Part shown: in pieces, positions 228 to 246 of the stretch
Position numbering within the stretch: the first letter of the stretch is position 1
Layout of the letters: each line of letters starts with the position of its first letter
Assembly: GCF_054482525.1 (NCBI RefSeq)
Contig: NZ_CM137006.1
Strand: one strand, 5' to 3'
DNA: 64,000 bases
The notes under the pieces: model-generated
What the model saw: the letters and a program-made list of their open reading frames with translations, nothing else
Databases searched by the model: none
Told to the model about the DNA's origin: nothing
Position numbers and translations under genes: made by a program

Positions 228-246
228 AATGAGTATATTTCTCATT
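228..246. promoter_or_regulatory. Palindrome AATGAG-N7-CTCATT upstream of fhuE; candidate Fur operator
   Basis: Inverted repeat read directly in AT-rich fhuE upstream region; fhuE is a known Fur-repressed siderophore receptor; match to Fur consensus only partial. Confidence 0.3.

Follow-up and report, generated by a model that had tools for sequence, protein, structure and literature searches.

A palindrome over the predicted -10 hexamer of fhuE as the probable core of its Fur operator

The hinT-fhuE intergenic region

The gene regulated from the region studied here is fhuE, a textbook member of the Fur regulon, at the left end of a window of 64,000 nucleotides (by the window we mean the whole stretch of DNA that was analysed). 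The first 2600 bases of the window are 100% identical to E. coli PCN033 (NZ_CP006632.1), and the RefSeq annotation beneath this match names hinT, fhuE and ptsG, the last of which lies downstream of fhuE. Because hinT starts at position 9 and runs leftwards, positions 10-342 constitute the hinT-fhuE intergenic region. The features of the locus are listed below, with coordinates in the window.

9, leftward, divergent from fhuE: start of hinT, at the left edge of the window
211..216, + strand: -35 hexamer TTTACA, from the promoter scan; a conserved block in the 17-species alignment
220..254, no strand: extended imperfect inverted repeat, arms 220-233/241-254, 11/14 complementary (79%); its extent matches the stretch protected by Fur in vivo
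222..240, no strand: predicted weak overlapping Fur site, -6 bp, AATATGAATGAGTATATTT, 4.4 bits; the least certain part
228..246, no strand: predicted central Fur-dimer site, 19 bp in the 9-1-9 register, AATGAGTATATTTCTCATT; supported by its matrix score of 17.1 bits, the centre given by Chen 2007 and ChIP-exo overlap
234..239, + strand: -10 hexamer TATATT, from the promoter scan; inside the palindrome spacer, with the palindrome centred on it
234..252, no strand: predicted weak overlapping Fur site, +6 bp, TATATTTCTCATTTGCATT, 5.0 bits
245..248, + strand: inferred fhuE transcription start, 6-9 nt past the -10 hexamer, giving a 5' UTR of ~95-98 nt
343..2532, + strand: fhuE coding sequence (open reading frame and RefSeq annotation), 729 aa, the outer-membrane receptor for ferric coprogen and rhodotorulic acid; the regulated gene

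The 6-7-6 inverted repeat that the original prediction had placed at 228-246 is indeed present as AATGAG-TATATTT-CTCATT, with perfect 6-nt arms and a 7-nt spacer. At least one perfect 6-7-6 repeat was found in 10% of 5000 dinucleotide-preserving shuffles of 1-342, and short inverted repeats are abundant in the region, with 11 observed against 2.2 expected (spacers 0-20). The bare palindrome is within chance expectation; as a match to the Fur matrix described below, it is significant.

A consensus promoter scan revealed TTTACA-17-TATATT with 10/12 matches. Transcription usually starts 6-9 nt downstream of a -10 hexamer, and no mapped fhuE transcription start was found in the literature searched. 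By the consensus scan together with the conservation of both hexamers in 17 species, the palindrome would overlap the -10 hexamer of fhuE.

We also considered a second inverted repeat, 245-262, as a separate element. In the window it is a perfect repeat, TTTGCAT-TTAC-ATGCAAA, located where the fhuE transcript is predicted to begin, with an RNA stem of -5.3 kcal/mol. The same stretch reads TTTGCATTTACAAACAAA in K-12, where the symmetry is broken, so that the repeat is probably without function, and it was rejected.

Fur-matrix score and register of the site

We built a Fur position weight matrix (PWM) from 20 validated K-12 sites, symmetrised (20.3 bits), with fhuE left out of the training set. 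The sites were fetched from NC_000913.3 at the coordinates of Chen 2007 (PMC2189734), which are the centres of the strongest Fur site in each footprinted or gel-shifted promoter. The K-12 version offset to NC_000913.3 was +777, as checked on fepD, entS, fepA, entC and gpmA; efeU, also tried as a check, gave 786 and not 777, probably owing to a re-annotated start codon, and the five other genes were used instead. For 17 sites, the position was confirmed by the annotated gene start and the published distance, and all 17 coordinate-derived sites share one register, AATGATAATnATTATCATT. For the remaining sites, we took the best 19-mer within the fepB, fur and tonB footprints.

In the PWM scan that the original prediction had called for, the palindrome ranked first in 1..360, by 12 bits. 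No better Fur site, which would have spoken against that prediction, was found elsewhere in 1..342: the runners-up in 1..360 were centred at 243 (5.0 bits), 231 (4.4 bits) and 265 (3.6 bits). The score of the palindrome, 17.1 bits, lies in the span covered by experimentally validated Fur sites of E. coli, the training sites scoring 19.9 bits on average when left out one at a time (sd 5.5, range 6.1-28.0). This score was reached in 8/5000 shuffles of the region and at 2/63,981 positions of the window, making the palindrome the second-best Fur-matrix match in the 64 kb, with only 42715-42733 higher.

The classical Fur box has reportedly been reinterpreted in 7-1-7 and 9-1-9 forms (Baichoo and Helmann 2002; Chen 2007). 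The original prediction had described the palindrome as only a partial match to the 19-bp Fur consensus. This holds for the classical box GATAATGATAATCATTATC, to which the best match is 12/19; the palindrome fits the dimer-centred 9-1-9 form, at 14/18 informative positions. The best matches to the classical box start at 225 and 231, offset from the palindrome by 3 bp in each direction, and it is because of this 3-bp register shift that the classical consensus appears to fit poorly. The classical Fur box is itself a composite of overlapping dimer sites (Chen 2007, PMC2189734).

The four mismatches to the dimer-centred form differ in cost. G at -4 and C at +4, which are also found in oppA, fecI, gpmA and ryhB, lower the score by 0.3 bits each, whereas T at -3 and T at +1, both within TATATT, cost 3 bits each. 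A close likeness is with the Fur site of gpmA, AATGATAATAATTCTCATT, which was confirmed by gel shift and scores 27.4 bits (Chen 2007, PMC2189734). It shares 16/19 bases with the fhuE site, including the outer arms AATGA...TTCTCATT, in the same 9-1-9 register. However, gpmA has the consensus A/T core, while fhuE has GTATATTT, which carries the -10 hexamer at a loss of ~6 bits. The DNase I-footprinted Fur operator of tonB has the 11-mer ATTTGCATTTA in common with 244-254 of the window, and both operators have a TGCATT-type half-site, although the best tonB 19-mer (7.1 bits leave-one-out) is not a near-perfect palindrome.

Fur clusters consist of overlapping dimer sites spaced 6 bp apart (Chen 2007, PMC2189734). 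The two weak sites flanking the palindrome, at +6 and -6 bp, match this pattern, and the union of the cluster, 222-252, agrees with the 33-bp ChIP-exo peak of MG1655 at 222-254. With the K-12 allele, the -6 site scores only 0.6 bits, and it is the least certain part of the cluster because it is poorly conserved between genera.

Elsewhere in the window, the best Fur-matrix match is AATAAAAATAAATATCATT (42715-42733, 21.4 bits), 93 bp upstream of yceJ, a cytochrome b gene starting at 42817. Chen 2007 predicted a yceJ cluster (20.6 bits, -89) that matches it, as do ChIP-exo peaks in E. coli W, KO11FL and CFT073. Further matches lie at 53496-53514 (13.5 bits) and 37328-37346 (12.5 bits), reading AAGAAGAACAATTTTTATT and AGTGAAAAGCATTTTCGTC.

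Occupancy, conservation and the reading of the site

A Fur site upstream of fhuE was predicted at 12.4 bits with its centre at K-12 coordinate 1160880 of an older version (Chen 2007, PMC2189734). This coordinate maps to window position 237, the centre of the palindrome (fhuE start 1161551; K-12 aligns gap-free). In MG1655, a Fur ChIP-exo peak upstream of fhuE spans 1160863-1160895, and seven further strains have 13-bp Fur peaks ahead of the gene (Gao 2023, PMC10164565, supplementary file 3). The MG1655 peak maps to 222-254 of the window, a length of 33 bp. We then located the 19-mer in five genomes besides MG1655 for peak mapping. The results showed that the peaks of MG1655, W3110, BL21(DE3), W, ATCC 8739 and CFT073 overlap the orthologous 19-mer by 5-19 bp, with the six peak centres displaced by +1 to +11 bp from the 19-mer centre, towards fhuE. 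In all six mapped strains, Fur bound only under iron-replete conditions (Gao 2023, PMC10164565). The Sakai peak was set aside: it falls 25-37 bp inside fhuE in NC_002695.2 coordinates, probably reflecting another sequence version in the paper.

Across eight strains, deletion of fur raised fhuE expression by a log2FC of 3.0-8.4 (8- to 330-fold), and the divergent hinT was unchanged (-0.17 in MG1655, -0.47 in W3110) (Gao 2023, PMC10164565). fhuE promoter-lacZ fusions with and without Fur indicated that repression by Fur is slightly stronger anaerobically (PMC4676285). In the literature searched, we found no study that had mutated the palindrome. A second MG1655 Fur peak, P32 (1161165-1161198), is bound in both iron conditions; it maps 49-82 bp left of the window edge, inside hinT, which does not respond to fur deletion.

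For conservation, one genome per species was taken. This yielded 54 distinct loci related to fhuE, ranging from Escherichia to Pantoea and Rahnella, with 55-98% protein identity; the PWM was run on the 52 for which upstream sequence was available. In nearly all of these, the 19-mer AATG[C/A]GTATATTTC[T/G]CATT is the best or second-best match upstream of fhuE, and it is present in ~50 species. An alignment anchored on the 19-mer selects for it and thus offers no proof of conservation, so the alignment was redone unanchored, with MAFFT, on the 243 bp upstream of fhuE in 17 enterobacterial species, in which FhuE identity went as low as 59%. Conserved blocks of 3 nt or more were limited to TTTACA (211-216), AATG (228-231), GTATATTTC (233-241), CATTTG (243-248) and ATT (250-252). 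Apart from the -35 hexamer, conservation is thereby confined to one block of 25 bp, 228-252, made up of the palindrome and its +6 overlap; the right half of the +6 site, CATTTG.ATT (243-252), is conserved in the 17 species and the -6 site is not. The conserved GTATATTTC includes the T at -3 and the T at +1, each of which lowers the Fur-matrix score by 3 bits.

Positions -5/+5 vary between genera as A/T, C/G or C/T, and A/G was never seen. The C/G form, AATGCG...CGCATT, of the Citrobacter, Leclercia and Enterobacter type is a perfect palindrome scoring 9.0 bits on the E. coli matrix. In the Citrobacter freundii group, an extra Fur-like site, AATATTAATAATTATCAAG (13.8 bits), lies ~19 bp upstream of the fhuE start, where it adjoins the ribosome-binding region and outscores the promoter site (9.0 bits). 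In Leclercia and Lelliottia, a Fur-like site of 16.6 bits overlaps the fhuE start codon. Because of the low 9.0-bit site and the stronger site near the start codon in some genera, the layout of the fhuE operator may differ between genera.

The proposal that the palindrome is a Fur operator for fhuE is supported by its PWM rank, by the Chen 2007 site at the same centre and by ChIP-exo peaks in six strains. The palindrome is very probably the core of the Fur operator in the fhuE promoter, at which iron-replete Fur would bind over the -10 hexamer and repress the gene, with release when iron is scarce. In plentiful iron, an Fe2+-Fur dimer would occupy the 19-bp site 228-246, and one or two more dimers would probably sit on the weak sites 6 bp either side, protecting ~33 bp (222-254). 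Fur bound over the TATATT hexamer of the predicted sigma-70 promoter would exclude RNA polymerase and keep fhuE silent; in scarce iron, Fur would depart and fhuE be transcribed. Both the occlusion and the dimer count are inferred, the 33-bp peak suggesting two or three Fur dimers. Our own analysis supports this reading by the match in sequence, the consensus-based overlap with the promoter and the footprint across species. In vivo Fur occupancy and Fur-dependent expression are taken from the literature on the orthologous site in other E. coli strains and would apply to the window by analogy.

All three other explanations that we weighed fit the data much worse than a Fur operator. It is highly improbable that the palindrome arose by chance in an AT-rich promoter, flanking a -10 hexamer, with Fur acting elsewhere or indirectly. 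Such an accident would be in keeping with the perfect 6-7-6 repeats in 10% of shuffles, the many short inverted repeats of the region and the lack of the symmetry in 99.9% of E. coli genomes, but no other site in 1..360 exceeds 5 bits, and the Fur peaks of six strains fall on the palindrome. Moreover, the AATG and CATT arms are conserved across genera while the neighbouring sequence is not, and even the imperfect K-12 allele scores 13.1 bits. A role as a structural nucleic-acid element, either an RNA hairpin or a DNA cruciform and not a protein site, is scarcely credible. As RNA, 224-250 would form a weak 7-bp stem of -5.8 kcal/mol (z = -2.46), and 3/200 shuffles fold equally well. However, with the predicted start downstream of it, the palindrome is probably no part of the fhuE transcript, and transcription of hinT proceeds away from it. 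In most E. coli and most genera, the arms contain a mismatched pair (C with T) that makes the stem weaker without compensation. An Rfam scan of 1-420 gave no match at E <= 1.

We regard it as very unlikely that the site serves some other symmetric DNA-binding protein as its operator or is shared by Fur and a second regulator. The palindrome bears no evident resemblance to the CRP site TGTGA-N6-TCACA or to the Zur box. The AATGCG-N7-CGCATT form of Citrobacter, Leclercia and Enterobacter is perfectly palindromic yet scores 9.0 bits, and the restricted variation at -5/+5, with A/G never observed, would likewise suit another protein. On the other hand, Fur operators known from footprinting (fepA-fes, tonB) contain AATGC and TGCATT half-sites, tables citing regulon databases give Fur as the sole regulator of fhuE, and the occupancy by Fur in vivo depends on iron.

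The Fur operator of fhuE, an ordinary regulatory element, is already known from prediction and from ChIP-exo in K-12 and other strains. The value added here beyond annotation is small: the operator is pinned to window coordinates, where it coincides with the predicted -10 hexamer. In addition, the poor classical consensus fit is explained, and the striking symmetry is shown to be a rare single-base allele.

Alleles of the operator within E. coli

The perfect symmetry that the original prediction had described proved to belong to a rare strain allele and is not a general property of the fhuE operator. The K-12 operator (Chen 2007; ChIP-exo peak P31, Seo 2014 / Gao 2023) has the same centre, 106 bp upstream of the ATG, and the same promoter, right arm and spacer, with 345 bp upstream aligning gap-free. 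It differs from the window in having C at 232, so that its left arm is AATGCG (imperfect, 13.1 bits) in place of AATGAG (perfect, 17.1 bits). The exact 36-mer 221-256 with AATGAG was found in 6/5422 complete E. coli genomes, the symmetry being absent from 99.9%. The K-12 version AATGCG was found in 4065 genomes and AATACG in 286, with ~1000 genomes having other 36-mer variants; AATACT and a -10 variant, TATGTT, were also seen. The predicted Fur scores are 17.1 bits for AATGAG, 13.1 for AATGCG, 10.3 for AATACG, 12.0 for AATACT and 13.4 for the TATGTT variant. The left half-site (231-233) is polymorphic in E. coli, and the right arm was constant in every sequence read.

We tentatively suggest, as a possibility that we ourselves hold to be doubtful, that the fhuE operator is naturally tuned through its left half-site, with at least four alleles (AATGAG, AATGCG, AATACG and AATACT) spanning ~7 bits of predicted affinity. 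The rare C-to-A change would then tighten Fur repression and raise the iron-starvation threshold for expression of the coprogen receptor in this pig pathogen. The left-arm polymorphism, along with a (TTTGCA)n expansion in O157:H7, could provide natural variants for work on how iron thresholds depend on operator strength.

In O157:H7 Sakai, four tandem TTTGCA hexamers, CATTTGCATTTGCATTTGCATTTGCAAGC, directly follow the operator, where the window has TTTGCATTTACA (245-256). The expansion shifts the operator from -106 to -118, and ERL06-2442 has at least three TTTGCA copies. Sakai also has the largest fhuE derepression on fur deletion (log2FC 8.4) and Fur binding in both iron conditions, which is a correlation only. 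In E. coli TUM14759, a G replaces A at the palindrome centre, 237, so that the -10 hexamer reads TATGTT in place of TATATT; the Fur score stays the same, at 13.4 bits, but the promoter may be weaker.
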